From IMG/VR virus record IMGVR_UViG_3300033508_000366, positions 13,460-77,459 of that record: a DNA stretch of 64,000 bases; one strand, given 5' to 3'. A program made the position numbers and the translations under genes. Of this stretch, positions 3,416-57,396 are shown one piece after another. The DNA comes from a virus. How positions within the stretch are numbered: position 1 is the first letter of the stretch; every line of letters starts with the position of its first letter. A model generated the notes under the pieces. That model worked only from the letters and a program-made list of their open reading frames with translations. It was not told the DNA's origin and made no database searches.

Positions 3416-4165
3416 TTATGTTAGTGATTTCAACATATTTATAAGTCTTTCATCGGGATAGCAATCCGATTTATCGCTTCTGAATGATGTGTGTGTCCAA
3501 ACACCCGCTTTTCCCGAAAGTGCTTCTTGTGATATGTCCCACATATTTTCATTATAATTCAAGGGAATTTTATATTTTTCACCCCAGAATACTAATAGTT
3601 GTCTAACTGCTTCAATTTGAGCATCTGTATATTTTTCATAACCATAAAAACCCCTATATCCTTGGTCATATGTTTGAACATTCGTAATTGGTTTAACTGC
3701 GGTATTTGCAATGAATTTCTTAATGTCTGCATCCCATTTTGCGGGATACCACAACCTATTGTGCCTAACCAAACCACCCCACGCATCCATTTCAATTCCA
3801 ATGGATGCCATATTCAACGCCTTGTTATTTGTAACACTTATACCCAAATGATATGCCCAATATTTACTACTAAAACATTGATATATCTTACCATCCCAAC
3901 CAACAATAATTGCAGTACCAATTCTATCAGCAGTGCTTCTCCACCAAGCTATGTCACCATCAACACCCTGTCCACTAACCGTATGATGTAACACGATTTG
4001 TTTTTTATCTGTCTGTTCTTTAAAATATTGATTATCTGGAAAATCGACAATTATAATATCATTTAAATTCAATTTTGCTAATGCCTGATTTTCTTTATCT
4101 CTTTCTTTTTCCACTTGTTTAATTGAATCAGTTGAATTAAACAATAATTTCATTAAACTTTTCAT
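3416..4165 (-). CDS. N-acetylmuramoyl-L-alanine amidase (Amidase_2-type endolysin)
   Basis: IVLHHT, WAYHLG, SIGIE, YTDAQIEAVRQLL and VWTH...DKSDC with Zn ligands intact. ATG at 4165; the ORF track starts at GTG 4180. Confidence 0.9.
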   Translation of the reverse strand: MKSLMKLLFNSTDSIKQVEKERDKENQALAKLNLNDIIIVDFPDNQYFKEQTDKKQIVLHHTVSGQGVDGDIAWWRSTADRIGTAIIVGWDGKIYQCFSSKYWAYHLGISVTNNKALNMASIGIEMDAWGGLVRHNRLWYPAKWDADIKKFIANTAVKPITNVQTYDQGYRGFYGYEKYTDAQIEAVRQLLVFWGEKYKIPLNYNENMWDISQEALSGKAGVWTHTSFRSDKSDCYPDERLINMLKSLT

Positions 4166-4180
4166 GATACACGTTTTCAC

Positions 4181-18905: not shown

Positions 18906-20378
18906 TTATTCCTCAATATTTAATTTTAAATTTGCGTTTAAGTGTGCAAGAAGACCAGCTTCATCATTCCAAATGAAAGCTTCTCCTGCTTTAATTGCAC
19001 CAACAAAACCCTTTTTATGATGCCATTCTTCAGTTCCAGTAAGACTTGATAGATACCTTACGGTAACACCCAAATCTTCATTAGTCACTCTTGACTTATC
19101 GAGAACTGTGTATTTTACATCTCTTTTTCTATGAATATGACCAACATGCCATTCATGATAGGTAGTATCAGTCCAGTGAGGTTTTGATTCAATATCTGTT
19201 GCCATTAATAGTGGCAGTGATGCTTCCTTTTCTTCACTACCGTGAGTAAGACCCAACAATACTTTACCAAATCGATAATATTTTCTCGGTGATGCACCAT
19301 TGTTTATGTTTACAATCGGGTCGTTATGATACCATGCTTCAAGATATGCACCCATGTAGAAGCTACGTTCAAAATCGTGATTCCCCGGGATAACCACCAC
19401 ATCAACAGGAACACCAGCTTGTTTCAATAAACTAATTGCATCAACAAGTAGTCTCACACCAACATTAAATGTTTTTTGCCATCTCAGGTCTTCATCCTGT
19501 GGTGTGCCTTTTGTTGTGGTATTATAGATAGTATCACTGTTAAAAAAATCTGAACCAACTGGGAATAGTATTCTGGAATATTCGAAACTACTTGCCCTAC
19601 GAATAAGAGTTTCCACTGTGTCTAGAAATCGTTGACGAGCTATTTTTGTATCATAATTTTCACCAGTTTCACCACCCCATGCCAGTTTACCCATGTGTAG
19701 GTCAAAACAGGTTATTTCAAATAAATTATTTTCGTGACGTTCTGAAGGCGTTTCAGGCATCCAATCAAGAACTGGTGGTACATAGTTTTTACACATTTCC
19801 TGAAACAATTCACCAATCGCCCTTTCTTTAATATCTTGTAATTTTTTCTCCAACCTAACTTTAACCTGAAAGTTTTGAATTGTAACTGGAAAACCATTTA
19901 CTTTGCTTGTCATGTCCCATTTGTTCACCAATTGGTCTCTAACTCGCCAGATTTCAGTATCAACTTCTGTTGCCTGAAGTAATTGTGGAACGGTTTTTAT
20001 ATGGTCAACAGGATAATTTGCCCCACTAATCCATTCAACATATCCTTCGTTATCTTCTTCGTAATACTTAAGACTTTCGTCAGGTAATGAATTTTCGGGT
20101 TTTTTTATCGCTATGTCGATTTGTGACTCAAGACTTGTTTCATCGTGGATTAAACCAAACCCCTTATTGTTTACATATTGTTTATATGCTTCATCAAACA
20201 ATGAAAATAATTCGTCATCAAGATTTCCCTTTTCATAGCTATCGTATACAATAGCTTTAATGTTTTTCACGTAGGTATCGGCATACCCACATTTTACTGA
20301 AGCTTCTTTAACTGATATTTGATTTTGAATTGCATAATTTATAATTTCTACTGCTTTTTCTATTCGTTCTTTTGTCAT
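18906..20378 (-). CDS. calcineurin-like metallophosphoesterase with N-terminal HTH-like region
   Basis: CFDLHMGK, GSDFFNSD, PGNHD, THG and GHIH motifs. Probable start is MTKER at 20378. Confidence 0.85.
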   Translation of the reverse strand: MTKERIEKAVEIINYAIQNQISVKEASVKCGYADTYVKNIKAIVYDSYEKGNLDDELFSLFDEAYKQYVNNKGFGLIHDETSLESQIDIAIKKPENSLPDESLKYYEEDNEGYVEWISGANYPVDHIKTVPQLLQATEVDTEIWRVRDQLVNKWDMTSKVNGFPVTIQNFQVKVRLEKKLQDIKERAIGELFQEMCKNYVPPVLDWMPETPSERHENNLFEITCFDLHMGKLAWGGETGENYDTKIARQRFLDTVETLIRRASSFEYSRILFPVGSDFFNSDTIYNTTTKGTPQDEDLRWQKTFNVGVRLLVDAISLLKQAGVPVDVVVIPGNHDFERSFYMGAYLEAWYHNDPIVNINNGASPRKYYRFGKVLLGLTHGSEEKEASLPLLMATDIESKPHWTDTTYHEWHVGHIHRKRDVKYTVLDKSRVTNEDLGVTVRYLSSLTGTEEWHHKKGFVGAIKAGEAFIWNDEAGLLAHLNANLKLNIEE

Positions 20379-20416
20379 TTTAGATGAGTTAAATAATATT
20401 ATTTTAGAATTTCTGT

Positions 20417-20424
20417 CAAAAATA
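20417..20424 (-). promoter_or_regulatory. TAnnTTTG element (TATTTTTG)
   Basis: 38 nt upstream of the 20378 start. Confidence 0.35.
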
Positions 20425-20453
20425 TGATAAAAATATTTAAAACACAAGTGTTT

Positions 20454-20762
20454 TTAAATAAATACATTACCACTTTTTTTAAGAAGAACAATAGTTTCCT
20501 CAATATCTTTACATTCGGTTCTGAAGGATACCTCATTACTTATACCCATATCAAACCATTCACCCACTTTTTTTAGACAAGAATATCTTCTCTGTAAAGT
20601 TTTTTCGATTTTATTTGCGAATTCAGATTGATAGGTTTCAATTAGCTTTAATCCAGAAGGGTTTCCTGTTTGCAATTCTTTAACTCGTTGTTGTGGATGC
20701 TTTGATACACCAATCTTATAATATCCGTTTTCTAATGACTGAATTAAGTATATATATTTCAT
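20454..20762 (-). CDS. T5orf172/MUG113-type GIY-YIG domain protein
   Basis: YIYLI...YYKIGVSKHPQQRVKELQTGNP...IEKTLQ...GEWF. Confidence 0.85.
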   Translation of the reverse strand: MKYIYLIQSLENGYYKIGVSKHPQQRVKELQTGNPSGLKLIETYQSEFANKIEKTLQRRYSCLKKVGEWFDMGISNEVSFRTECKDIEETIVLLKKSGNVFI

Positions 20763-38373: not shown

Positions 38374-38781
38374 CTATTCTTCGTCAGTTTCTTTTTTAGT
38401 TGTTTTACGTTTACCTGTACTATATTTTTCAACAGCTTCTTCCTCTGTCTTCATTTCAACAACTTCTTCCTCTGTCTTCATTTCAACAACTTTTTTAGGT
38501 ATCTTAGATTTAGTATCAGAACTTTTTTTTGGTTTTAGTGTTTCTTGCATTGTTGCTAATTCAGTTTCACTAATAACTGCGACAGTGATTAGATTTTTCA
38601 CTCTTAATCGATGTACTGATAATGGAAGTGAAGGAATTGTCAAATAAATGCTCTCGTTAGGTTTAATTGTTATTAATTTCTTGGTCATATTATCAATATA
38701 TTCAATATCTAATATCGAATTAGCTTTCACATCACGTTTACCTAGAAAATTGGTTATGTTTGTAATTTTAAATGTGTTCAT
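38374..38781 (-). CDS. hypothetical protein with charged C-terminal tail
   Basis: 135 aa ORF containing a 9-aa tandem duplication. Confidence 0.65.
   Translation of the reverse strand: MNTFKITNITNFLGKRDVKANSILDIEYIDNMTKKLITIKPNESIYLTIPSLPLSVHRLRVKNLITVAVISETELATMQETLKPKKSSDTKSKIPKKVVEMKTEEEVVEMKTEEEAVEKYSTGKRKTTKKETDEE
38437..38490. repeat. 27-bp perfect tandem duplication
   Basis: TTCTTCCTCTGTCTTCATTTCAACAAC x2, encoding VVEMKTEEE twice. Confidence 0.95.
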
Positions 38782-38790
38782 AATTTCATT

Positions 38791-39606
38791 TTATTTTAAT
38801 CCTTGAATTAATGTATCGCCATATTTAATACCATCGAATCCCATTTTTTGCGCCTTTTCAGCAATGGCTTTATTTTTTAAATTGATGGACGGCATATTAT
38901 ATTGTTTACTTATTTCTTCAAAATTCACATGAGGAAACCAAATTTTTGCAAGTATTTCAACTGGTTGTTGACCATCTTTATACATTACACCTAATGCATG
39001 TGTATCTAATAAATTATCAAATTCAATTTGATATTTACTATAACCATTAATCGGATTTAACGTAAAAAAATTACCAACAACAGAATTTTCTCTAATCGGG
39101 TCTTTTCTATAACCAATAATCGTTTGTTGATTCGCACTCGATTTTTCTTGCTGAACAACAGTATTATCTTCTTCCAATGATTTTAAAAACTGGTTTTCAT
39201 CTTCACCATAAAAATTAATTGCATCTTGGGTTTCCACTTCTTCAAGTCCTTGTGATTGTTCGTATTCGTAAATGTCTTGAATTTTATTTAAAACCCTACA
39301 CGCATCTTTTTCGTTTAAACCAAGCTTTATTGCTTTGATTTTCTTATTATCCAATAACCCACGAACCATTCTGTGATGACCATCAAGTATTTTATTATTT
39401 TCTGACATCCAAATCGGATTCATGTCATCAATATTAACCTTTCCAACTTCATCACTAAATGTAATTCCTTGTAGCGGTTCTAATTCATTAGGGTCTACTT
39501 CAACAACTTCATAACCCACACCTTCCTCATCAAGTTTTTCAAGCACAACATCATATGGTGCATTCATCTGTGGAAGAAAACGTGGTTTATATCTCATATC
39601 AATCAT
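38791..39606 (-). CDS. ParB/Srx-like domain fused to an ART-PolyVal-like domain
   Basis: ILDGHHR in the N-terminal half; IIGYR...NFFT...FDNLLD...KMGFDGIKY in the C-terminal half. Confidence 0.6.
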   Translation of the reverse strand: MIDMRYKPRFLPQMNAPYDVVLEKLDEEGVGYEVVEVDPNELEPLQGITFSDEVGKVNIDDMNPIWMSENNKILDGHHRMVRGLLDNKKIKAIKLGLNEKDACRVLNKIQDIYEYEQSQGLEEVETQDAINFYGEDENQFLKSLEEDNTVVQQEKSSANQQTIIGYRKDPIRENSVVGNFFTLNPINGYSKYQIEFDNLLDTHALGVMYKDGQQPVEILAKIWFPHVNFEEISKQYNMPSINLKNKAIAEKAQKMGFDGIKYGDTLIQGLK

Positions 39607-39621
39607 ATGAATATTTTTATT

Positions 39622-39629
39622 ATAAATAC
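39622..39629 (-). promoter_or_regulatory. putative late-promoter motif GTATTTAT
   Basis: 15 nt upstream of the start at 39606. Confidence 0.6.
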
Positions 39630-39636
39630 TATAATA

Positions 39637-40584
39637 TTATTTTTTCATTTCTTTATCAATAAAATCCCAATTATCTAATGGAATCCAACCATATTTTGTT
39701 TTAATTTCAATTTCCTCTACTGGAATTTCTCTGATAGTAATCCATTCAAACCCCTCATTCTTTTCATATTTAGGCGTTAATTTAAAATCATCCGTCTTTT
39801 TTGTTCTTAGTACAACACCCCTTCCAGAACCACCTTTCATTTCAGCGTAATACAATGCTACTTTTGGTTTACTTGTAAATGAAATATAGTGTTCATTATT
39901 CCCAGCAGCATTTAATTTCATTCTGCCGTCACGTTGAATACTATAAGCAGCACCGTCATAAGTACCATGATAAACATATTCACCATCTGTAACAAAATTT
40001 CTAATTTCTTCATTAATCATTCTTAACAAAATATTGCTGGTTTCCATCAGGCTGATTCTATCATTATTAACATAATAGATGTCGTATTGCACATCGGGTG
40101 ATAATTTATCTTTTATCTTCGTGTATTCAGCTATTTTATTCTGCATCCCACCTGCAAAGTCATCATAAACAACAATCTCTTTTAAATCCTGATTATATTT
40201 TTCTATTTTCAGAATTATATCACCCTTATCTTCGTTACCTCGTTTTAATATGACTTCATCAACAATAACATTATTTAAACTAAGAACTTTCTCAAGTTCA
40301 TGACGTAGTTTTTCCATTCTCGAAGTCAAAATTATGACTTTAGTATCTGGTGTTGCCTTTTCTTTTTCCAATTGAGCAAGTACATTGGGAAATGGTTTTA
40401 TATCAAACACGGTTGTGTCGAGACTTTCAGGTCTGCCCCACCAGCCATTATGTGGGTATGGTTGTCCCATCTTTTCTTCCCATTGCCTTTTACCTTCTTC
40501 TGGTTCAGGGGTATTCATGATAGTACCATCAAAATCCATGATACATAGCCTTTTAATTGTATTTCCAATAGATTCCTTAGTCAT
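39637..40584 (-). CDS. HAD phosphatase (Swiss-army-knife RNA-repair type) fused to an ADP-ribosyltransferase-fold domain
   Basis: HAD motifs MDFDGT, WW, LTSR, K and YDD; then YHGT...ISFT...ALYYA...VVLR...EW...IPVEEI. Confidence 0.75.
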   Translation of the reverse strand: MTKESIGNTIKRLCIMDFDGTIMNTPEPEEGKRQWEEKMGQPYPHNGWWGRPESLDTTVFDIKPFPNVLAQLEKEKATPDTKVIILTSRMEKLRHELEKVLSLNNVIVDEVILKRGNEDKGDIILKIEKYNQDLKEIVVYDDFAGGMQNKIAEYTKIKDKLSPDVQYDIYYVNNDRISLMETSNILLRMINEEIRNFVTDGEYVYHGTYDGAAYSIQRDGRMKLNAAGNNEHYISFTSKPKVALYYAEMKGGSGRGVVLRTKKTDDFKLTPKYEKNEGFEWITIREIPVEEIEIKTKYGWIPLDNWDFIDKEMKK

Positions 40585-40595
40585 ATGCAGCCAAT

Positions 40596-41198
40596 TTAAA
40601 TTATTTTATTATATGTCATATCATTTCTTGTTGCAACCTCTAAACAAATTTTTCTAAATACAATTTCTGGTATTATAAATAAATTCATTAGTTTTGCTCC
40701 ATATTTTTGTTTTTTACGGAATTTGTATAGTATATGAATACCCATTTTTTTATTATCCCATTCATTCATTTTTCGAACCAACTCATTTTCTTTTAACAAA
40801 GGGTCTGTTATGGAAATTAACCTATTTTTCTCAAGCTCATTATACCAATCAAATATTTTTTTAATTCTATCTGTATGTGCTAAATATAAATTAGTTTGGT
40901 TATCATGAATCCAATATTCGGCTTTTGTTACCAATAATCCTGATGGTTTGATTATATAATCATTAACATTACTTTGTCCAAACTCAATACATATATTAGG
41001 ATGTTTAGCACCCTGTAAATCATTTTTACATTCAATACCTTTATCAATAACATTACTAAATAAATCATAATCGCCATTATTTGGATGATACTTATAGAAT
41101 TCAAGACCCCTTTTCAAATTAATGTCGTGAATTAAAAAATTTTCCAATTCATTTCCTGCAAGAACGTCTTCATCAAAATCATGAATTTTATCTGCCAT
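40596..41198 (-). CDS. putative PD-(D/E)xK nuclease-fold protein
   Basis: YDLF...IECKND...NICIEF...KPSGLLVTKAEYWIH pattern of a phage endonuclease-like family. Confidence 0.55.
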   Translation of the reverse strand: MADKIHDFDEDVLAGNELENFLIHDINLKRGLEFYKYHPNNGDYDLFSNVIDKGIECKNDLQGAKHPNICIEFGQSNVNDYIIKPSGLLVTKAEYWIHDNQTNLYLAHTDRIKKIFDWYNELEKNRLISITDPLLKENELVRKMNEWDNKKMGIHILYKFRKKQKYGAKLMNLFIIPEIVFRKICLEVATRNDMTYNKII

Positions 41199-43057
41199 TA
41201 TCTTGGTATTTCAGTTATTATTCCAGTTACTTTAATTTGAAACCTAGTTGATTTCCAATTAGTTAATTTATTCGATATGAACGGCTTTCCACCACCATCT
41301 ACATTTACTGCCAATGTTATATGTGGTTTAGCATTATTCGTTGGATATCCTTCGACACCAACTGCAATCACTAAATCATCGAAAGCATAATCAACAACGG
41401 TTAATTCGACTTCATTTCCCAAATCATTGGCGTATTTCGGGTCAATATTTCCCATATTCAGGGTCATGTGGTGTGCATATGGTTTCCAACCTTCTGGAAT
41501 CATTCCACTGAAAACCTTTAACAGTTTTGCGTGTGATTCATCAGTAAGTACGACTGCACTATATGCGATATTCTTCACAACACCTTCATTTAATACTTCT
41601 CTATCTGTTAAACTCCAGTATAACTCTCTTTTGAGTTTATCGTCATTAACGAGTTCTGGAAATACATCTTCAATAAATCTCAATATAGATTCATTATTTG
41701 CGTCTTTAAATCTATCGTATTCGTAATTCCATTCATCGTATTTTTCAATAAAGAAATTAATATCAACTTGTTGACCATTTATCTCCCAACTACTTGTTGG
41801 ATTACCATAGCTTGCATATTCTCTAACAATTGGCGCATTTCCTTTTGACAAATTTAATAATTCTTCTCGATTATTTCCAACTTTATCTGAATAAACATTA
41901 ATTAGTAATGATTTTTTCATATTCTTTATCGCTTCACCATGTAAACCAAGTTCCATTAAATCATTACCATTAACAGCTAATTCATCAACAGTTTTTGGAT
42001 ATTTACCCTGTAACAGTTCTTGTGCTGCATTACTAATTGCCTCTGGTAATATCTGACTTTCGATTGTTTGCGGAGCAGTTTTAAACATATTTGATACAAC
42101 TGACCTTGCAATAACTGGTGTCATTTCATGCTTAACCAAATCTGAATTAAATGCTTGACCTAACGCCAGCATTTCTTTATATATTTTTGTTTTCCTTGCT
42201 TTTTCGCTACCAAATCTATGTAAGAAAAACTCAGATGGGTTTTGAACCACACCGTCCATCATTAAAAATAAAAATTCTGACATGGTTTTAACGCCTTCGA
42301 AATTCCTGCGCCCGATTTGCGATGGCGTGATTTGATTTCCGAATATCTGCTTAAACAATCCAGTGGAAATCAATAATTCAACTCCGATTCGTGGACTACC
42401 CTTTGTAACTATCTTATCGAGTTCGGTTAAAATTCTTTCTGCTGGTATTTCTTTAATTCTTTCTACATTTTCCCTAATCATTTCCATTGTTTCAGGCTCA
42501 ATAGAAAAACCAAAACGTGAAGCAAATGCTACGATTCTTAACATACGTAAGGGGTCATCACTAAATGCATCTGGATTTGCTGCACTTATTTGTTTTTTTT
42601 CAATATCTTCAAGTCCACCCAATGGGTCAACAAATTTACCTGAATTAATATTAATTGCCATTGCGTTCATCTTAGCGTCTCTTCGAATGAGGTCATCCTC
42701 AATTGGAAGATTTTCATCACTTTGCACATCAAACCCACGATAACCACCTTCACCATTTGGTTTCTCCTTACGTGGTAACGCAATATCGTAATCAACACCA
42801 TCAACATCAATAAATTTTAACACACCAAACGATTTACCTACAACATCAACTTTACCAAATTTTTGTAAGTGTGTAATCAAAGTATCAATTGGCACATTTC
42901 TAACAATCAAATCAATGTCCTTGTTTGGCTTATTGAGGATGAGGTCACGAACAACTCCACCAACAGCCAGAACCTCAGCGTTCATATCATTTATCAATGA
43001 TTGAATAAATGGTTTTTGTTTTAAATTTAATGTGAAGTTCTGTATTTTACCGCTCAT
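41198..43057 (-). CDS. cca: class II tRNA nucleotidyltransferase (CCA-adding-like) fused to a C-terminal 2H phosphoesterase
   Basis: GGVVRD/DID, RRDAKMN, DDPLRMLR and ERILTE motifs; no HD domain. The C-terminal HHMTL and PHITL form a 2H motif pair. Confidence 0.88.
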   Translation of the reverse strand: MSGKIQNFTLNLKQKPFIQSLINDMNAEVLAVGGVVRDLILNKPNKDIDLIVRNVPIDTLITHLQKFGKVDVVGKSFGVLKFIDVDGVDYDIALPRKEKPNGEGGYRGFDVQSDENLPIEDDLIRRDAKMNAMAININSGKFVDPLGGLEDIEKKQISAANPDAFSDDPLRMLRIVAFASRFGFSIEPETMEMIRENVERIKEIPAERILTELDKIVTKGSPRIGVELLISTGLFKQIFGNQITPSQIGRRNFEGVKTMSEFLFLMMDGVVQNPSEFFLHRFGSEKARKTKIYKEMLALGQAFNSDLVKHEMTPVIARSVVSNMFKTAPQTIESQILPEAISNAAQELLQGKYPKTVDELAVNGNDLMELGLHGEAIKNMKKSLLINVYSDKVGNNREELLNLSKGNAPIVREYASYGNPTSSWEINGQQVDINFFIEKYDEWNYEYDRFKDANNESILRFIEDVFPELVNDDKLKRELYWSLTDREVLNEGVVKNIAYSAVVLTDESHAKLLKVFSGMIPEGWKPYAHHMTLNMGNIDPKYANDLGNEVELTVVDYAFDDLVIAVGVEGYPTNNAKPHITLAVNVDGGGKPFISNKLTNWKSTRFQIKVTGIITEIPR

Positions 43058-43119
43058 AATAATTCTTTTATTAATATTTTCTCACAATATTCGAGATTCG
43101 TTTTTAAATCATTTTCCCA

Positions 43120-43127
43120 CAAATATA
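43120..43127 (-). promoter_or_regulatory. TAnnTTTG element (TATATTTG)
   Basis: Intergenic, about 60 nt upstream of the cca start. Confidence 0.4.
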
Positions 43128-43252
43128 ATAATTTAAATCCATTCGTTTATAAATATTTTAATTTTCTTCTATCTCGATTAATATTTTTTCTTGTATTCTA
43201 TCAAGTATAGAAACTCACTAAATATTCTGAAATTGTCATAATTTATATTTAT

Positions 43253-46200
43253 CTACATCAATTTTTTCGCTTCATCAAGGTTTTCATTAATCGACCCATC
43301 TTTTCTTTTAATCGTGATTTCATCCTGATTTTGATGTAAAATCTCATATTCAATTGGTAAATGTTTTTGGATAAACCTCGAATATAATAAAAATCTTTGA
43401 TTAACTTCTCTATCATCATTTTTACTTGTGGGTTCAATTGATAACATTTGTGGTTTAGTATTAATCAAAAATCCACGGGTTAATTTAATCATAGTAGCCA
43501 TTATTCTATATAATCTACCTTTATTAACCACTTCCACATAATTATCAACTCTTTTGTCATCATCAATTCCAAAAACTACTTTCCATCTATCTTCACCATC
43601 ATCAAACAAATCGAACTCAACACTATAAACATCATTATCTTCAGTAGTGAATGAATAAATCTTTTGCCTATCGGTGCTTTTAATAATTGAAAGCTGATAT
43701 GGTTGAACATTGCCTTCACCAGTTTCATTAATATTATTTTCCTCAAACATTAAATCAACCAATTTGCTCTTTCCATCTTCATCATCTGGAATAATAATAT
43801 CCATATTCCCTTCCTTATAGTCAATATAGATGTCAACATTCCCAGATTTAACAAGACTATAAAACACTTCTTTAATAACATTTTTTATTCGTTTTTTATT
43901 CAATCCTTCCATTGAAAGTTCATGTTCATTCTTACCATAGTGTACTCGTACCCAACCATCATCAATTGCTTCATAATAGGGGTCATCAGCCTGTGTATAA
44001 ATTGTTTTAATATATCCAAAATGTCCCTCACCAATAACCTCAATTATTTTATTATCTGGAGTAATCCATGCACTAAAATCTCTATTAGGTACTACATTTT
44101 CATCAAGTGGTTTAATATCAAGATTATTTATATCACCTTGATTACAAGCTGCACTGGTGTTTCCCTGTCCACCGAGTTTACACTTTTTTTTTACACTTAC
44201 TGATTGAGAACCAGCACCGAATGATTTAATTCTATCTTCACGAACATACTGTATTAATTCTTCTCTATATAACACATAATCATTCTCACCTATTTTATAT
44301 TGAACATTTTTCAATAGATTTATTGCGCCATTTACTGTTAAGTATTTTATGATTTGTAAATTAACAATACCGTTCCAAACCACTTCAGTAGAATAACCGA
44401 CTTTTGGTTTATCACTGGTTTTAAATACAATTGCAACATAATCATTAAAATCTCTCGACCTTTTCCCACCGATATTATGTATCTGTACTGAGGGATAAAA
44501 TTCGCCATAAGTTAATGATACTGCAAATACCGCATCTACAAACGTATCACTAAAACTTGGGTCTAATTTTTTCGACTTTGCTATTTGTACTGCTTCTTTT
44601 TTAGGTGCGAAATGAATAAAAACATCGTCTTCTACTGACATAAAATATGCATTACGGTCATTTTTACCAGTAATTGGTTTTAATTTACCTTCAGTTAACT
44701 CATATTCATCCTTTGTTGCATCACTAACATGATTATATTCAAGGTCTTCATTATACATTGCACTATTGGCGTTCAAATCGTTTTCAATTGACTGAGAAGT
44801 ATCGTTAGTTTCATATGTAGGAAAATCGTCTTGTCCAACTGAGTTAGTTGTACTAAACTTAGCACTACCATCTTCATCTACTTCAATTTTTTTCAAATTC
44901 TGTGGTTGTAAGAATCCATTTCCGAAACCAACATCAAAAAAACCAAGAGCACCACTCTTTTTATACCCCAAATTAGTATAATTTAAATAATCCATACTCT
45001 CAATACCATATTGCTTACATTCTTCAGCAATTTTTAATACACCATAAAAATATTTAGCATCTTCGGGATTTCTCGACATATACTTTTCAACTTTAGTTTT
45101 ATCGACATCACCACCAAATTCACCATTATCTAAATAATAATCAACAACATCGGCAAATCTAACGCCCATTATTTTTTCAAATACAAAATCCATTCTTTCT
45201 TTAAGCCTCTTGAAATTTGCTTCATCTGTCCTAAGTTTTTCTAAAACAATTGCCCAAGTTTTAGGTATACTATCATCAGATTTCGGTTTTATTTCATAAA
45301 CGTTATATGGTTGTGCAATATATTTTAATGGTTTTCCAATAAGCATTAGATTTTCAGCAGCCTCACTATTATCCTTGGTGATTTTTAATACCCTATCATT
45401 ACCAATATCGTAAGCCATACCAAAATTACCACCCTTCATGGGCACGAGATTAAGATTTAATTTAGTGGCAACCTGATTAGCAATTCTATCGGCAATATTT
45501 CTGTCATAGTCTTCACTCAAATCATCTTGACCTTCTGGTAAATAAATTATATCGTTTTTATCGATTTGTGGTTCTTCTGCAATATAACCACCAACATCAA
45601 AATATGTTAATATACCATTTTTATATCCAAGATTACCAATTGTAATATAATCTGTTGACCCAATACTGTAGTCAATTAAATCTTTTCTAATGTTTAATAA
45701 ACCAATCAAATAATTATATAACTCTTTTCTTTCTTGTTCATTAATATTAGCCTCTGGATTTGCAGTTAACACTTGTTTTGCAATCTCAGCCATTTCGTCA
45801 TAATTAAATCTTTGGGGGATTTTTATTCTTTTAAAAAAATCACTAAGGGTCATATCGTTTGGTTTGATGGTGTCCATTACTTGTTCAAACCTTCTAAATT
45901 TTTCCATTGGTTTGTCGTGAATATGTTCTTCAATTAAAACATAAAACGCCATATTTTTCTCAGTGTCAACAACCTTATATATCGCATAAACTTCAGCTAA
46001 AGTTTTTGGGTGATTTCTCATTATTTTAAAACCAGAATCTGCTTCACTAATATCACTGGTTATTTTTAAAACCTTACCATCACCAATATCATATGCATAA
46101 CCAAATCCAGCACCACCCATTAGTTTTGGTTGCCCCAATTGTAATTTTTGTGCAATTGCATTTACCATATTTTGAGAATATTCTTGCGATAAATTCCCCC

Positions 46201-46651
46201 AACTAAGTAATACTGATGGTGTACCTTCTGGTTGTGGAATTTCTGGTCGTTTTTTTTGACGTGGAACTTCATTGGTTTCATGTAGAGCCAAAGGTTCGCC
46301 ACTATATGAATTTTGTTTAATAAGATATTCCTGAAGTTTTAATAGATTTTCATAAAAACGTCTGGGTTCTTTTGCAAGCTTAAACGCTTCTTTTAAATTA
46401 CCAATACAGTTGTTAAAATATTCCATTAAATATGGCATCGTAGTTAATGCCTTATTTGGGTAATAATCTCGATTTGAAACAAAATGAACGAATTCTTCAT
46501 TTATAGCACCTTGTCCATCACTAACACTATATGGTATTTGTGCCCACATTCCTTGTCTAACTTCTTCACCACTACCAATATCTGAAAGCATGTCATCATT
46601 GCCATCAGCAAAGTTAAAAAGTTCGTATAATTGATATTTTTCTTTTGCCAT
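43253..46651 (-). CDS. polyvalent protein: two tandem protein-kinase-like domains, an ART-like domain and further unknown domains
   Basis: Domain 1: GGAGFGYAY/VLK/SEA/DYITIGN/YFDVG. Domain 2: GGNFGMAY/VLK/SEA/DYLNYTN/FFDVG. FIHF...VFAVS...IVFKT...EVVW is ART-like. Confidence 0.8.
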   Translation of the reverse strand: MAKEKYQLYELFNFADGNDDMLSDIGSGEEVRQGMWAQIPYSVSDGQGAINEEFVHFVSNRDYYPNKALTTMPYLMEYFNNCIGNLKEAFKLAKEPRRFYENLLKLQEYLIKQNSYSGEPLALHETNEVPRQKKRPEIPQPEGTPSVLLSWGNLSQEYSQNMVNAIAQKLQLGQPKLMGGAGFGYAYDIGDGKVLKITSDISEADSGFKIMRNHPKTLAEVYAIYKVVDTEKNMAFYVLIEEHIHDKPMEKFRRFEQVMDTIKPNDMTLSDFFKRIKIPQRFNYDEMAEIAKQVLTANPEANINEQERKELYNYLIGLLNIRKDLIDYSIGSTDYITIGNLGYKNGILTYFDVGGYIAEEPQIDKNDIIYLPEGQDDLSEDYDRNIADRIANQVATKLNLNLVPMKGGNFGMAYDIGNDRVLKITKDNSEAAENLMLIGKPLKYIAQPYNVYEIKPKSDDSIPKTWAIVLEKLRTDEANFKRLKERMDFVFEKIMGVRFADVVDYYLDNGEFGGDVDKTKVEKYMSRNPEDAKYFYGVLKIAEECKQYGIESMDYLNYTNLGYKKSGALGFFDVGFGNGFLQPQNLKKIEVDEDGSAKFSTTNSVGQDDFPTYETNDTSQSIENDLNANSAMYNEDLEYNHVSDATKDEYELTEGKLKPITGKNDRNAYFMSVEDDVFIHFAPKKEAVQIAKSKKLDPSFSDTFVDAVFAVSLTYGEFYPSVQIHNIGGKRSRDFNDYVAIVFKTSDKPKVGYSTEVVWNGIVNLQIIKYLTVNGAINLLKNVQYKIGENDYVLYREELIQYVREDRIKSFGAGSQSVSVKKKCKLGGQGNTSAACNQGDINNLDIKPLDENVVPNRDFSAWITPDNKIIEVIGEGHFGYIKTIYTQADDPYYEAIDDGWVRVHYGKNEHELSMEGLNKKRIKNVIKEVFYSLVKSGNVDIYIDYKEGNMDIIIPDDEDGKSKLVDLMFEENNINETGEGNVQPYQLSIIKSTDRQKIYSFTTEDNDVYSVEFDLFDDGEDRWKVVFGIDDDKRVDNYVEVVNKGRLYRIMATMIKLTRGFLINTKPQMLSIEPTSKNDDREVNQRFLLYSRFIQKHLPIEYEILHQNQDEITIKRKDGSINENLDEAKKLM

Positions 46652-46674
46652 TTTTCTGGAAATATAATATATTC

Positions 46675-46682
46675 ATAAATAC
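46675..46682 (-). promoter_or_regulatory. putative late-promoter motif GTATTTAT
   Basis: 23 nt upstream of the kinase polyprotein start. Confidence 0.6.
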
Positions 46683-46709
46683 AGGATTGACGATAAAAGT
46701 GGATAAGAA

Positions 46710-46735
46710 AAAAGCGTAATTGTTATTGCGCTTTT
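46710..46735 (-). terminator. possible terminator hairpin
   Basis: AAAAGCGTAAT / ATTGCGCTTTT with one mismatch, overlapping the stop of 46723..47400. Confidence 0.4.
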
Positions 46736-47400
46736 GCTTTACTTTTTGCTTGGATATCTTTTATGGTTTCTATAACCACAGTTCGTATCAAGTCTTTATT
46801 TTCATGTAATACTTCTTTAATTCGTTCAACAGCATACATTTCAATTATCGTACCTTTGATTGCTTCTTCGAAGATAGGACCGAGACTTTCGGTTAGATAT
46901 CCATTCACAATTTTCTTAACATTCTCTGCCAAATATTGTTCGTTTAGCTGCATTGGTGCGCCTGTTGCTCCCATAGGTACTTGTTGAGACATTGGTGCTC
47001 CAACATTAGGTGCATTGATATACCCACTCATCGATTCAGCAAGTGTTTGTTTTCTCTTTCTTTCAAGGTCTGCAAATAACTGCTCATCCCTTTCTAGTGA
47101 CATATCAATTGATTCACGTTTAGGTGCTTGATGTTGAACTGGAGCAACCACTTCATTGACAGGAAGTCGTGTAAGTTCACCATGTTTTGCAGCCACCTTA
47201 TTACCAACAGTTTTAACCAGCGAACTTGCTGCAGTTTCTCTACCAGAATGTAATGATTCTATTAATCCATTCAAAAATACATCACGTGGCGCAACTCCTG
47301 CTCCAACATGTTCACCCAAGCCAGATGAAACCATATTTTTTTCTTTCTTACGTGTATCAATTTCATCCCTGAGTTTATTTAAATTAACGTTCTTTGCCAT
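46723..47400 (-). CDS. hypothetical protein, candidate head/internal protein
   Basis: 225 aa with VNE, LAE, LNE and LTE motifs and an upstream late motif. Confidence 0.65.
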   Translation of the reverse strand: MAKNVNLNKLRDEIDTRKKEKNMVSSGLGEHVGAGVAPRDVFLNGLIESLHSGRETAASSLVKTVGNKVAAKHGELTRLPVNEVVAPVQHQAPKRESIDMSLERDEQLFADLERKRKQTLAESMSGYINAPNVGAPMSQQVPMGATGAPMQLNEQYLAENVKKIVNGYLTESLGPIFEEAIKGTIIEMYAVERIKEVLHENKDLIRTVVIETIKDIQAKSKAKAQ

Positions 47401-47423
47401 TTTATAAAATTTTATTATTTTTT

Positions 47424-47431
47424 ATAAATAC
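47424..47431 (-). promoter_or_regulatory. putative late-promoter motif GTATTTAT
   Basis: 23 nt upstream of the start at 47400. Confidence 0.6.
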
Positions 47432-47435
47432 AGAA

Positions 47436-48377
47436 TTATTTGAAAAAAGTTTTTCTTTCAAACGGTATTGTTGGTAATTCAGTTTCTTTTATCTGATTCT
47501 GTTCTTTATTTTTAATATTTTGCTTCAATCTATCTTTAGCTGTTCTAATAAATCCACTTTTAACTGGAACATTAGTATTCAGTAATGAATCAATTAAATG
47601 TGATAGAGTATCAATAATTGCTGCGTCTGGAATGTTTTGTTTATCTTTATCTTGTGCCAACATTAATTCAAATTCGTTTTTATCGTTAACAACAACCAAA
47701 TATTTTCCATGTGCAGTTTTTTGTACATGTGATGCCAACATTTTTAGCTTACGTATATCATCAGCAGTAATTTTAATACTATTTTTATTACCGTTCCTAA
47801 TGCTATCCCATCTTGCCTTATTACGTTCAGCTCTTGACATTGTAGACAAACCTCTTTGAATATCTGTTGAAGTAGAATGTATTCCAACGTGTTCTGGTTC
47901 ATTTGATGTTGAAACATAGTAGTCGATTTTGCTCATATCTTCATCAGAACCTTCACGATAACCACTGGGTATCATTACACTGCCATCATCATAATTAAAT
48001 TTTCTTCCGATTGGAAATACATGAGAAATTTTATCGAGACGAAACATGCGCCAGCCCGGTTTCTCACCTTCCCTATCTATCCAATAGTCATGATATTTAC
48101 TATCATTACGAGTTGGTTTCTTATCAAAATCATGACTGTTTCTCGGATTGTCTTGCCATGCCCTTAAAACAGGTTTACCTGATTTTTTATGTATACCAAG
48201 AACATATGGTCTTATTGTTCGACTCCCTTTAGCAGATTTTCCATCACCAGCATAGTAAAGATGAATCCATTCATGATTTTGAATAGCATTAATAATCTCA
48301 GATTCGCCAACACCTTCAGTAATAAGATGACGAAACTGTTTGATATTTTCAAACAATATTTTGTCTTCTGGTAACAT
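47436..48377 (-). CDS. WYL-domain protein
   Basis: AIQNHEWIHLYY...RTIRPYVLG...LRAWQ...WRMFRLDKI. Confidence 0.8.
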   Translation of the reverse strand: MLPEDKILFENIKQFRHLITEGVGESEIINAIQNHEWIHLYYAGDGKSAKGSRTIRPYVLGIHKKSGKPVLRAWQDNPRNSHDFDKKPTRNDSKYHDYWIDREGEKPGWRMFRLDKISHVFPIGRKFNYDDGSVMIPSGYREGSDEDMSKIDYYVSTSNEPEHVGIHSTSTDIQRGLSTMSRAERNKARWDSIRNGNKNSIKITADDIRKLKMLASHVQKTAHGKYLVVVNDKNEFELMLAQDKDKQNIPDAAIIDTLSHLIDSLLNTNVPVKSGFIRTAKDRLKQNIKNKEQNQIKETELPTIPFERKTFFK

Positions 48378-48378
48378 A

Positions 48379-48618
48379 TTATGCAGTACCTGCGTTATAT
48401 TCTTTATTTCTATTAAACTTATTCTTTGCAGCTAATGTTTCCCTCATTTTAATGTCAGTAGCACCACCCACTTGACCATTTACTTCACCTTTACCATCTT
48501 CATCACCAGTTGATAATGCATCAGGATGACCCGATGTGTATTGGTCATTGTTTCCATAATCATTTTTGGCAACGGTACATGTTCTATACTGTAAACTAAT
48601 ATCTTCTAATCTGCTCAT
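48379..48618 (-). CDS. small hypothetical protein with internal repeat
   Basis: 79 aa; RTCTVAKNDYGNNDQY and RETLAAKNKFNRNKEY. Confidence 0.65.
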   Translation of the reverse strand: MSRLEDISLQYRTCTVAKNDYGNNDQYTSGHPDALSTGDEDGKGEVNGQVGGATDIKMRETLAAKNKFNRNKEYNAGTA

Positions 48619-48650
48619 TTTTTCTGTTTTAATTTTTCGTGTTATTTATT

Positions 48651-48658
48651 ATAAATAC
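48651..48658 (-). promoter_or_regulatory. putative late-promoter motif GTATTTAT
   Basis: 32 nt upstream of the start at 48618. Confidence 0.55.
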
Positions 48659-48659
48659 C

Positions 48660-49445
48660 TTATTCATATTTTTTAAATACGAGTGTAATATATTCAATTA
48701 AATGTGGTACAGTATCAAGAAATTCCATCTCACTTATATCATACCAGCCATAATTACTATTTTCATCATTTAATGTAATTTCGGTTGGTTCACCATTATA
48801 TCTACAAGCAAAAACATGTTCAACACTATTTAAATTTCTTTCAATGGTGAATGTTTTCACAAATTTCTTAATTTCCAAACCAATCTCTTCTTTAATTTCT
48901 CTTTCAATTGCTTTTTGAGGTGTTTCCCCTTTTTCAATACCACCACCAACCAACGCCCATTTTGAAGGCATCCAAGGTGCTTTTTCACCCCTTTTTAATA
49001 ACAAAATTTTATTATCTGAATTAACAATTACTGCCACCGCATTTTTCGTTTTCTCTTTTTTTTCTTTTTTATTCTCGCTCAGTCTTGGTCGAGGTGCTTG
49101 ATATGGTTTTAATTCGGAATTCGGATTACTTGTCATATCACGCCTAGTTTCTTTTGACCTCTGAACTCCAGCTCTATCTTGATTTAACGTGGCTTCAATA
49201 AACGATTTCATTGGTTGACCACCAGCAAGATTAAATTGTGCTGGGTCACCTGATTGCTGATTAAAATAATCAAAGAAATTTTTTAATCGCTTCATTGCTT
49301 GATAGGTTAAATAACCGTTTTTAAGCATGAATTTAGCTCGTTTAACGCCCTCACCATTTGGATTGGATACCAAGGTAGTCTGAATACCTTTTAATACGTC
49401 TGAAGGTATTTTATACGTTTTATTATATAACTCTTGATTAGCCAT
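48660..49445 (-). CDS. NUDIX hydrolase with an extra N-terminal domain
   Basis: Nudix box GGGIEKGETPQKAIEREIKEEIGL. Probable start is MANQE at 49445. Confidence 0.88.
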   Translation of the reverse strand: MANQELYNKTYKIPSDVLKGIQTTLVSNPNGEGVKRAKFMLKNGYLTYQAMKRLKNFFDYFNQQSGDPAQFNLAGGQPMKSFIEATLNQDRAGVQRSKETRRDMTSNPNSELKPYQAPRPRLSENKKEKKEKTKNAVAVIVNSDNKILLLKRGEKAPWMPSKWALVGGGIEKGETPQKAIEREIKEEIGLEIKKFVKTFTIERNLNSVEHVFACRYNGEPTEITLNDENSNYGWYDISEMEFLDTVPHLIEYITLVFKKYE

Positions 49446-50073
49446 TCTTTCTCTCCAATAAATCAATCAATTTATCGATATCTTTTTTCTCTAACTTATT
49501 AATCAAGCCAGCAATTTTCTCAATTTTCTTTCCCCTAACTTCCTTGTCATCGCTCTTACTCGTGATTTCATCTTCCTTTTTATCAACTAGTTTTTCTTCA
49601 ATGACTTTAGCTTCATCAATATTCTCAGGCTCTTGAAATGCATTTTCGAAATGCTTTTCAACTACTTTAATTACTTTTTTTGCCCAATCAAAATCAATTT
49701 TCCTTTTTTCTTCGGGTTGAGTATTGAAATCCTTTTCATTATGTAACCTAAAATCAGATTTTAATTTATTTGGATTTCTGAAATAATATTCAAGTGTTTC
49801 CATGTACTTATCGTACATGAGTTCTGCTAAATCATTTAACAATTCCTTTTGACCACTATTTTCTTCAACACCTTCTAAAAATGGCATTAATGTAAAACCG
49901 AAACGACCTAACATATCGTACCTAAAGGGTTGAGTACCAACTTTAGCATTATAATCGGAAGTATTACTGGCTTGACTTTCTAAATCAGCACCAGTTGTTG
50001 GAATATCAGACTTGCCAATTAAATGACCATCAGTATCAATTATTTCAACTAAGTCTTTCTTTTTTAATTTCAT
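49438..50073 (-). CDS. hypothetical protein
   Basis: 211 aa with an upstream late motif; coupled to the NUDIX gene. Confidence 0.65.
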   Translation of the reverse strand: MKLKKKDLVEIIDTDGHLIGKSDIPTTGADLESQASNTSDYNAKVGTQPFRYDMLGRFGFTLMPFLEGVEENSGQKELLNDLAELMYDKYMETLEYYFRNPNKLKSDFRLHNEKDFNTQPEEKRKIDFDWAKKVIKVVEKHFENAFQEPENIDEAKVIEEKLVDKKEDEITSKSDDKEVRGKKIEKIAGLINKLEKKDIDKLIDLLERKNG

Positions 50074-50089
50074 CTGTGCATATTTTCAT

Positions 50090-50097
50090 ATAAATAC
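50090..50097 (-). promoter_or_regulatory. putative late-promoter motif GTATTTAT
   Basis: 16 nt upstream of the start at 50073. Confidence 0.6.
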
Positions 50098-53779: not shown

Positions 53780-54151
53780 CTATTTTTCTGTTTTATTTAT
53801 AAATTGATACGTTAATTTCTTAGTTTTTGGATTATATTTATATTTTAAATCTTCAATAACATATTCACTACTATTCATGACCATCTTCGTATTTTTTGGG
53901 AAAATTCCTGATAACCATAATGCACTTACTACATTATTCGCAACAACCTTATAATAACCATCTTTTCCCTTGATTTCAAAATCGAGATGTTGTGTATCGT
54001 ATTTATCTTGCACAATATACTCTAAAATTTGAACAAATCCAACATAAATATCTTCTTCAAATTCTTTTTTTGTTAAATCAACGCCATGAATCATCGATGT
54101 GAATAAAAAATCCTGAAACGGATTTATATCACTTTCATATATTCTTCCCAT
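53780..54151 (-). CDS. hypothetical protein
   Basis: 123 aa ORF directly upstream of polB. Confidence 0.6.
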   Translation of the reverse strand: MGRIYESDINPFQDFLFTSMIHGVDLTKKEFEEDIYVGFVQILEYIVQDKYDTQHLDFEIKGKDGYYKVVANNVVSALWLSGIFPKNTKMVMNSSEYVIEDLKYKYNPKTKKLTYQFINKTEK

Positions 54152-56439: not shown

Positions 56440-56447
56440 GTATTTAT
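56440..56447 (+). promoter_or_regulatory. putative late-promoter motif GTATTTAT on the + strand
   Basis: 13 nt upstream of the + strand GIY-YIG ATG at 56461. Confidence 0.55.
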
Positions 56448-56460
56448 ATAAAAAATCAAT

Positions 56461-57396
56461 ATGAAATCTGGAATATACATAATCGAAAATCTTATTAATG
56501 GAAAGAAATATGTTGGAAGTGCTAAAAATGTCGATAAAAGATGGTATCAACACAAATATACACTTAATAATAATACACACGATAATTCATATTTACAAAA
56601 AGCATGGAATAAACATGGTAAAGATAATTTTAATTTTATTATTATTGAAGATGTTATAATTGAAAACTTACTTGAAAGAGAACAGTACTATATCGATTTA
56701 TATGATGTATGTAATAGAAAAAAAGGATATAATTTAGCACCAACTGCTGGGAATACCTTGGGGTTTAAACACACTGAAGAAACTAAAAGAAAACTGAGTT
56801 TATTGAAAAAGAATAAACCATCAAATAGAAAAAATTATGTAACATCTGAAGAAACTAAAAGAAAAATTGGTAATACAAATAAAATTAGTCAACTTGGGAG
56901 AACACATACTGATGAGACAAAAAATAAAATGAGAAAACCTCATGGTGCGATGTCTGATATAACAAAGAAAAAATTGAGTGATTGGAGAAAGGGGTTAATA
57001 CCTTCAGAGAAAACTGGTGAAATGATAAGTCCAAAAGTAAAAAACATATTATCAACAAAAGAAGTAATGAATAAAATCAAGGAAATTAATCGGAAAAGAA
57101 TTTCCCCAATGAAAGGTAAATCATCTTCAGAAGAAACAAAACAAAAATTAAAAAATAGAATTATTAGTGATGAAACAAGAATTAAATTATCTATCTCATG
57201 TAAAGGAAAAAATAATGGAGAAAATAATGGCATGTCAATAACAAATAATGAAGAAGTTATTGCAATACGAAATGATTATGATAACGGAATGACACTTTCA
57301 CAATTACAAACAAAATATAATAAAAAATATATGTTCATATATAAAATTGTTAAAAGATTACGATGGAAATGGTTAAATGACGGTAGTTTTCGTTAG
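56461..57396 (+). mobile_element. free-standing GIY-YIG homing endonuclease with NUMOD3 repeats
   Basis: SGIYIIENLINGKKYVGSA...RWYQH, LLEREQYYID and GYN; repeated KHTEETKRKLS / TSEETKRKIG / HTDETKNKMR. Confidence 0.9.

Follow-up and report, generated by a model that had tools for sequence, protein, structure and literature searches.

We examined a block of genes in a 64,000-nucleotide stretch of viral DNA (the window, taken from IMG/VR virus record IMGVR_UViG_3300033508_000366) and compared it with related phage loci. The block is probably a conserved accessory region built on a polyvalent protein, which here is divided over two genes, P0001 (1132 aa) and P0004 (619 aa), with a variable front end of effector modules and a constant back end made of a CCA-adding enzyme, a 2H phosphoesterase and usually a HAD phosphatase (in P0002, 315 aa). 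By its architecture this pair is predicted to be a polyvalent protein sensu Iyer et al. 2017, in which the unit for tRNA 3' ends is constant. The open reading frames (ORFs) that an initial annotation of the window had named are all present on the minus strand, with the coordinates of Table 1. That annotation also took the block for a candidate undescribed system. Its architecture combines that of the polyvalent proteins (PMC5512222) with the RNA-repair and NAD/ADP-ribose gene sets of jumbo phages (PMC7824862, PMC9503650); the block is a clade-wide polyvalent family with a constant CCA-2H(-HAD) core and does not amount to a new category of system.

Constant and variable modules in related loci

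Related loci were collected in two ways, six through the large protein P0001 and 80 through the 271-aa protein P0003; module counts refer to the loci with enough upstream DNA (denominators 54, 59, 64 and 69). Synteny across relatives had been proposed as a check, and the block stands in the same order in the six loci of the first set and in the 80 of the second: DNA polymerase, 211-aa ORF, Nudix, 79-aa ORF, WYL-like protein, 225-aa ORF and polyvalent protein, followed by an optional 200-aa ORF, HAD, the 271-aa protein, a 135-aa ORF and a glycosyltransferase. Conserved order reaches well past the block, from the polymerase to the glycosyltransferase. All 80 loci belong to one clade, within which the anchor protein is 46-90% identical.

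Across these loci a constant tRNA-end unit is joined to swappable effector modules. The CCA-adding enzyme and the 2H domain are each encoded in 61/64 loci, HAD in 63/69 and a 55-aa junction peptide in 53/54. The leader region of P0001 is found in 42/54 loci, a kinase in 38/54 and the module that we call C in 21/54. A KptA-like domain is present in 11/69 loci, an ADP-ribosyltransferase (ART) of the ART-PolyVal family in 6/54 and a GNAT-like module in 4/54; module A of the window was seen in none of the 54.

Fusion and splitting follow the module borders. Junction and CCA form a single ORF in 41 loci and lie in separate ORFs, as in the window, in 18; for CCA and 2H the corresponding numbers are 34 (one ORF) and 29 (separate). 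The 2H domain is fused to CCA or lies immediately after it in 61/61 2H-bearing loci. The P0001 family has at least 140 members, the majority fused to a CCA enzyme, and some carry ART-PolyVal, GNAT, ParB or 2H/Acb1 domains.

Individual relatives differ in how much they join. In L018 (IMGVR_UViG_3300037067_018912) one ORF holds the leader, junction, ART-PolyVal, module C, CCA, 2H and HAD, and three repair activities are therefore placed in one polypeptide. The most divergent loci (L077 and L081-L083, 49-53% anchor identity) encode a minimal junction-CCA-2H protein; they have neither kinases nor a HAD gene, and their Nudix appears as two matches in one ORF.

The CCA-2H protein and the HAD protein

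The N-terminal part of P0004 is, by prediction, a class II CCA-adding enzyme with CCA specificity. It matches PolyA_pol (72 bits), PolyA_pol_RNAbd (66 bits) and phrog_2244 (E 1e-55), and its translation contains GGVVRD, DID, RRD, DDPLR and ER...E motifs. The C-terminal domain, when scanned alone, matches the cyclic phosphodiesterase (CPD) family tRNA_lig_CPD with 24.6 bits against a cut-off of 23 and has two HxT motifs. The initial call of a CCA nucleotidyltransferase plus 2H phosphoesterase thus stands. The window 2H domain gives no match to Acb1 (PF23474). Among relatives, 2H domains match Acb1 and 2_5_RNA_ligase2 weakly; that of L005 reaches 20.2 bits with Acb1, under the cut-off of 27.

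In P0002, D17, D19 and T21 of the HAD DxDxT motif are invariant or almost so. HAD_SAK_1 is weak in P0002 itself but is recorded for many homologs. We folded the protein with 36 homologs (pLDDT 84), and the best fold matches of the predicted HAD model are RNA-repair phosphatases, Pnkp1 (4xrp, Z 12.5) and T4 Pnkp (5uj0, Z 12.1). Neither a Pfam scan nor the predicted model contains a fused P-loop 5'-kinase domain.

After the HAD domain and a disordered linker, the C-terminal domain of P0002 begins, and it has the shape of the NAD+ lobe of KptA/Tpt1. It aligns with residues 92-180 of TkoKptA (Z 9.4, root-mean-square deviation 2.2, 82 residues, 21% identity; Foldseek E 2.4e-4), the alignment being confined to that lobe. 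The label "HAD plus ART-like" given to this protein was therefore apt in both halves. PF01885 has no match in P0002, nor in the relative G004, which carries the KptA-like domain. Searches with Pfam on the isolated piece, with PDB sequences and profiles, and with hhalign against ART-PolyVal (shallow profiles) also gave no meaningful match.

We considered whether this domain is a true Tpt1 and rejected it, as the RNA lobe is absent and PF01885 is unmatched. The RNA lobe of Tpt1 carries three of the four catalytic residues, the Arg-His-Arg of the tetrad (PMC10622864).

The front end of P0001

As a whole protein, P0001 matches nothing in Pfam or PHROG, and Pfam scans of its separate domain pieces were negative too. 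Its modules were resolved by comparison with at least 140 relatives and with 551 representative-library matches. Folding covered residues 655-1132 (a 478-residue model, pLDDT 84.3), and a MAFFT alignment of whole proteins misplaced fragments.

In the two kinase-like domains, the motifs GxGxxG, VLK, SEA, D..N and FDxG (Gly-loop, Lys, Glu, catalytic residues and metal Asp) are nearly invariant over 65 sequences. Their language-model neighbours are Phage_T7_kinase (0.95), Kinase-PolyVal (0.92) and Pkinase (0.92). Hidden Markov model (HMM) and PDB sequence and profile searches gave no match for either domain, and Pfam returned no kinase family on the 65 homologs; Kinase-PolyVal (PF18762) in particular is matched by language-model features only (0.92) and by no HMM. 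The earlier description of P0001 as a "kinase-kinase-ART-like" protein survives in part: the kinase motifs and the ART-clan neighbours of module A agree with it, but HMM and PDB searches for kinases and profile searches for an ART were negative.

Module A resembles the Arr/HYD-like ARTs. All its language-model neighbours are of the ART clan (Arr/Arr-ms 0.89, Tox-ART-HYD1 0.88, DarT/PARP 0.87, ART-PolyVal 0.83), and three of 41 homologs match Tox-ART-HYD1 weakly. Its predicted model has a pLDDT >90. A BFVD fold search with the 478-residue model found Alt-type ARTs at E ~5e-4, the matched part of the model being unspecified. An hhalign comparison of module A with ART-PolyVal, made with shallow profiles, was negative. 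The slot of module A is occupied by an ART-PolyVal module in the relative L003, and L007 matches ART-PolyVal with 38.5 bits, over the cut-off.

The next three pieces had been overlooked in the initial annotation. The junction peptide has the consensus VKKKC, GNTS and CNQGDI with two conserved Cys; it is modelled as disordered at low confidence (pLDDT 48-69), has hydrophobic-x-E sites on both sides and forms the extreme N-terminus of CCA proteins that lack kinases. For module C no fold match was listed. Module D falls into DUF6934, PF22028 being matched by 25 of 32 homologs. Its predicted fold is probably GNAT-like, with VIA Z of only 6.2-7.6 to about 40 GNATs of the top 50 rows; in the Atlas it has a TM score of 0.78 to a DUF6934 cluster and of 0.65-0.69 to GNAT clusters. 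Modules A and C are left without a fold match of their own because module D fills the fold lists of the 478-residue model.

Possible repair of tRNA 3' ends

The CCA-2H-HAD trio could restore the 3' ends of tRNAs after cleavage by metal-independent RNases, because the chemistry of the three families is consecutive and the domains are fused and constant; their substrates and their cooperation are what we infer here. The 2H domain would first open the 2',3'-cyclic phosphate ends that metal-independent RNases leave on tRNA. Its best-matching family, as part of the fungal tRNA ligase, converts a 2',3'-cyclic phosphate to a 2'-phosphate. HAD would then strip the remaining 2'- or 3'-phosphate, possibly helped by the NAD+-lobe domain. 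In the last step the CCA enzyme, which needs only a 3'-OH, would rebuild the 3' end. The same CCA enzyme would also mature the CCA-less tRNAs of the phage itself. Published chemistry fits such steps: the HAD phosphatase of T4 Pnkp takes 2'-phosphate, 3'-phosphate and cyclic phosphate off RNA ends (PMC3592404), some Tpt1 enzymes strip terminal phosphates with NAD+ (PMC6573784), and a logic leading from 2H to KptA to Nudix has been described for phages (PMC9503650).

Joined to this back end through the junction peptide, the front end would supply host-modifying modules, namely a pair of truncated kinases (T7 or Kinase-PolyVal type), an ART-like domain, module C and the GNAT-like DUF6934 module. 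The Nudix, WYL-like and DGHHR (P0003) proteins are conserved neighbours, and we draw no link from them to the repair path.

The initial annotation had claimed a complete tRNA 3'-end path for 2H, HAD and CCA addition. The trio is the constant core of the block and fits such a path; synteny within one clade does not show joint action of ten genes. Several points weigh against a repair function. The association is limited to one clade, and inheritance alone could explain the synteny. Outside the clade no co-occurrence was seen, and the nearest CCA enzyme there, in megaphage LR756504, stands alone. The 2H domains of polyvalent proteins have been argued to target nucleotide signals, not RNA ends (PMC5512222), and the 2H of a relative matches Acb1 weakly, as noted above. 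The kinase and ART-like calls are without HMM or fold confirmation, and the enzyme activities are predictions throughout. Finally, maturation of the phage's own tRNAs, a role that the initial annotation had left out, could plausibly justify a CCA enzyme by itself.

Promoter-like motif, timing and packaging

The motif GTATTTAT is present at all five places listed in the initial annotation, and it is enriched: the window has 21 matches against 8.6 expected, none of 100 shuffles reaches 21, and 18 of the 21 lie on the coding strand. The 8-mer TATTTATA alone occurs 24 times against 17 expected and is not enriched; enrichment is confined to the version with a leading G. In the complete relative G001 the 9-mer has 63 occurrences, where about 23 are expected, and it lies upstream of the same genes as here, those for P0003, the polyvalent protein and the 225-, 79- and 211-aa ORFs. 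Late expression of the block is plausible if its timing is inferred from this motif. A motif copy lies upstream of the baseplate operon too. Another, at 20458-20465, is 11 nt before the Mre11-like exonuclease gene (18906-20447), and because of it the motif is not confined to structural or lysis genes. Neither the 544-aa ORF beside the protease in G001 nor the putative amidase at 3416-4180 had a PDB sequence match, and "late gene" labels were not confirmed for them.

Two further sites were noted. The plus-strand homing endonuclease has the same motif upstream on its own strand. Two copies of TATAAATA (coding strand) lie in the window at 53794-53842, just before the DNA polymerase start at 53773. 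We take TATAAATA to be the T4 late-promoter core in forward orientation, with the block genes carrying its reverse complement plus a leading G.

The initial annotation read the block as a late counter-defence kit, possibly packaged and injected like T4 Alt. In its full form, all ten genes would make up one late-expressed kit that is packaged into the capsid, cut into separate enzymes by the prohead protease and injected with the DNA. We regard this full reading as doubtful. A T4 gp21-type protease (PF03420, 60-68 bits) is encoded in 4/4 complete relatives. Hydrophobic-x-E sites ([LIVM]-x-E) are kept in 85-100% of homologs at the module borders of P0001 (residues 8-10, 371-373, 591-593, 652-654, 849-851 and 974-976), and such sites bracket the junction peptide, which is modelled as disordered. 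The baseplate operon has the promoter-like motif too, G001 retains it, and polyvalent proteins are regarded as cargo of the virion (PMC5512222). Three further conserved hydrophobic-x-E motifs, however, fall within the kinase core, which means that such motifs are not border-specific, and GTATTTAT also precedes the exonuclease gene named above. The block adjoins replication genes and not those for portal or MuF. None of its small neighbours resembles a head protein; the 211-, 79-, 225- and 135-aa ORFs have no family match above threshold, and because they resemble nothing, their description as interleaved "head-like" proteins has no basis. The packaged-kit reading is drawn from sequence signs.

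That P0001, perhaps with some neighbours, would be loaded into the capsid, cut at the hydrophobic-x-E sites bracketing its modules and injected with the DNA is in our judgement rather unlikely. Processing of a packaged polyprotein would fit the x-E sites and the protease, which are circumstantial evidence. If P0001 were delivered in this way, the phage would arrive with a ready tRNA 3'-end repair kit (2H, HAD and CCA) as well as kinases, ART-like and GNAT-like enzymes, and the 55-aa junction peptide would be a targeting or processing cassette. The cleavage-like sites and the T4-type head protease make the idea of an injected repair enzyme directly testable.

tRNA genes and other explanations of the block

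The complete relative G001 (362.8 kb) encodes 55 tRNA genes and a tmRNA. Only 6-8 of the 55 encode CCA and 47-49 do not; because most of the tRNA genes lack it, a CCA enzyme is needed for plain maturation anyway. Midway along the tRNA array, about 150 kb from the block, is a gene for an Rnl1-type RNA ligase, and classical anticodon-loop repair is therefore encoded elsewhere in G001. No RNA ligase, RtcB or Tpt1 was found in the 84.7-kb record of the window, which is 28% complete.

All 20 amino acids are covered by the tRNA array of G001 (L103-L105, ~196-237 kb). ARAGORN predicted one tRNA with the anticodon CTA, which would read TAG, and one with the four-base anticodon TAAG (L105:19513-19585 and L104:5185-5265). 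Suppression or frameshifting is a possible role for these tRNAs, but the predictions may also be artefacts.

These genes bear on an explanation by housekeeping and signal destruction, in which CCA would mature the roughly 50 CCA-less tRNAs of the phage while 2H, Nudix and HAD, in the manner of Acb1, would degrade immune nucleotide signals or ADP-ribose derivatives. The 47-49 G001 tRNA genes without encoded CCA agree with the first half. The second half draws on the complete Nudix box, on the weak matches of relatives' 2H domains to Acb1 and 2_5_RNA_ligase2, and on the nucleotide-signal role predicted for polyvalent 2H domains (PMC5512222). It accounts poorly for a 2H domain that in 61/61 loci is joined to CCA or comes immediately behind it, that in the window matches best the tRNA-ligase CPD family and not Acb1, and that is accompanied by a HAD whose top folds are Pnkp1 and T4 Pnkp. 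We consider this explanation unlikely.

It is quite improbable that the genes have no function in common and have only been passed on together as a clade-specific core genome, since CCA and 2H (and HAD in L018) are physically fused in many members and chance poorly explains the fusion of biochemically consecutive steps, even though all 80 loci come from the one clade with 46-90% anchor identity, gene order is kept far beyond the block and no co-occurrence was seen outside the clade.

Comparison with known systems

Like the polyvalent proteins described earlier (PMC5512222), P0001 has many effector-type domains in one polypeptide, with six or more modules, among them kinase-like domains without a C-lobe; ART-like, GNAT-like, 2H and putative ParB-type modules occur in the family, and its modules are shuffled among relatives and also occur as solo genes. 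Unlike in those proteins, a complete class II CCA enzyme plus 2H forms the constant core in this family, a conserved 55-aa junction peptide is present, and there is no MuF, portal or metallopeptidase neighbour. CCA is absent from that description (0 occurrences in PMC5512222), in which the Pol-beta nucleotidyltransferases are minimal and belong to firmicute conjugative elements.

With the jumbo-phage sets (PMC7824862, PMC9503650) and T4 Pnkp-Rnl1, the clade has in common CCA, 2H, HAD of the Pnkp type, a KptA-like domain, Nudix, a WYL-like protein and a distant Rnl1. It differs from the jumbo-phage sets in that a single protein carries CCA and 2H, frequently in fusion with kinase-like and ART or GNAT modules. 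The fungal and plant tRNA ligase and Tpt1 (PMC7145591, PMC10622864, PMC6573784) are similar in that 2H CPD is the best Pfam match here and a Tpt1-like NAD+ lobe is encoded nearby; a chemistry leading from cyclic phosphate to 2'-phosphate and its removal would fit. Unlike in those systems, no ligase or P-loop kinase is fused here and the Tpt1 RNA lobe is absent.

The HAD differs from T4 Pnkp in having no 5'-kinase partner; the KptA-like part is the NAD+ lobe only, and the ligase is about 150 kb off in the tRNA array. The T4 Pnkp/Rnl1 route mends the anticodon loop. If CCA-2H-HAD heals and rebuilds tRNA 3' ends, it would be a repair route aimed at the acceptor end in a large uncultured phage clade. 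The existence of host defences that cut or obstruct tRNA 3' ends would follow from it. The family is also a natural experiment, in which a fixed enzymatic core, a conserved peptide and swappable effector modules can be tested singly.

The multifunctional CCA enzyme of E. coli, in work attributed to Yakunin et al. 2004, is said to have a CCA head and a C-terminal HD phosphoesterase that clears 2',3'-cyclic phosphate ends. P0004 likewise has a CCA-adding head followed by a C-terminal phosphoesterase, which is 2H and not HD; because of this difference in fold the two phosphoesterases are analogous, not homologous. T4 Alt and the internal proteins of T4 are packaged via a leader and cut by gp21. 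The gp21-type protease of the relatives and the hydrophobic-x-E sites at the leader and the module borders recall this arrangement at the level of motifs.

Neighbouring genes and source of the window

Table 1. Positions of the block's genes, protein modules and motif sites in the window.
Feature	Position	Strand	Remarks
Homing endonuclease, GIY-YIG/HNH-type	56440-57396	plus	phrog_314; sole plus-strand gene nearby
211-aa ORF	49438..50073	minus	first gene after DNA polymerase; GTATTTATA upstream; kept in relatives
Nudix hydrolase	48660..49445	minus	domain ~48714-49043; N-terminal 130 aa unassigned
79-aa ORF	48379..48618	minus	GTATTTATA upstream; 37-75% identity in L002-L007, also in wider census
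313-aa protein, weak N-terminal WYL-like domain (~48156-48299)	47436..48377	minus	Pfam WYL
225-aa ORF	46723..47400	minus	GTATTTATA upstream; kept in relatives; RelB-like match sub-threshold only
P0001 leader, residues 1-150	46202..46651	minus	L-Y-E at 8-10; E10 unchanged across 96 aligned rows
P0001 kinase-like domain 1, residues 155-392	45476..46189	minus	alignment A3; paralog of domain 2
P0001 kinase-like domain 2, residues 393-640	44732..45475	minus	alignment A3; conserved acidic tail
P0001 module A, residues 660-800, ART-like (Arr/HYD-like)	44252..44674	minus	alignment A4; conserved H, S, E
P0001 junction peptide, residues 801-855 (55 aa)	44087..44251	minus	highest conservation in the family
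P0001 module C, residues 856-970, alpha/beta	43742..44086	minus	confident model, no family assigned
P0001 module D, residues 975-1125, DUF6934, GNAT-like	43277..43729	minus	PF22028
AT-rich spacer, 195 nt	43058..43252	minus	separates polyvalent gene from CCA gene; one ORF in 41/59 relatives
P0004 class II CCA-adding enzyme (predicted), residues 1-440	41738..43057	minus	Pfam, PHROG, motifs
P0004 2H phosphoesterase, residues 480-619	41201..41620	minus	HHMTL, PHITL (two HxT)
200-aa ORF, PD-(D/E)xK-like motif set	40596..41198	minus	phrog_13596; optional in relatives
P0002 HAD phosphatase, residues 8-181	40042..40563	minus	polynucleotide 3'-phosphatase type
P0002 KptA/Tpt1 NAD+-lobe-like domain, residues 200-315	39640..39987	minus	fold match
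P0003, 271-aa core protein	38791..39606	minus	N-terminal DGHHR (ParB/Srx-like by motif only); C-terminal half unassigned
135-aa ORF	38374..38781	minus	always after P0003
Promoter-like motif GTATTTAT	46675..46682	minus	upstream of P0001; sister sites 50090, 48651, 47424, 39622, 38272
GTATTTATA sites	50089-50097, 48650-48658, 47423-47431		before 211-, 79- and 225-aa ORFs
Motif site	39621-39629		before P0003

The NUDIX call was confirmed by Pfam (E 1e-19), by phrog_1198 and by a complete Nudix box (Gx5Ex7REUxEExGU) in the translation. The gene probably starts at the ATG at 49445 and overlaps the preceding gene, that of the 211-aa ORF, which has no Pfam or PHROG match. The WYL assignment (PF13280) of the 313-aa protein is marginal: the whole protein scores 23.1 bits against a cut-off of 21.8, but no single stretch passes alone. 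Orthologs score 14-21.7 bits, and four of six have a weak match at the same N-terminal place (five of seven with the window protein). For the 200-aa "nuclease-fold ORF", D...ExK and NICIE are conserved in 19 homologs, which lends the assignment weak support.

P0003, once labelled "ParB plus ART-like", did not bear out that label. It has 519 homologs, and the best 120 are 66-94% identical. No Pfam match was found among 25 members, nor a PDB profile match, and its C-terminal half gave hhalign E 0.55 against ART-PolyVal (PF18760), a negative result with shallow profiles. The DGHHR motif and language-model leads of only 0.77-0.82 (ART-PolyVal 0.82) are what the label draws on, and the Arg of DGHHR is replaced by K or S in L006 and L007. 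P0003 also has weak matches to modules that themselves match DUF1015 weakly.

The window has a GC content of about 30% and holds nearly all its genes on the minus strand; its source record of 84.7 kb is an estimated 28% complete. A family-B DNA polymerase and a helicase flank the block on one side, and glycosyltransferase and baseplate genes on the other. No DNA nearly identical to the window was found in GenBank phages, tblastn with P0003 gave no match among them, and the DNA polymerase matched only Salinibacter phages, at 24-28% identity. On these grounds the clade is without a cultured relative in the GenBank phage collection. None of the RNA runs searched for the window DNA contains a match. 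Related phages with the block form an uncultured clade with genomes of 327-365 kb, and metagenomes of microbial mats, soil and wetland contain the same DNA.

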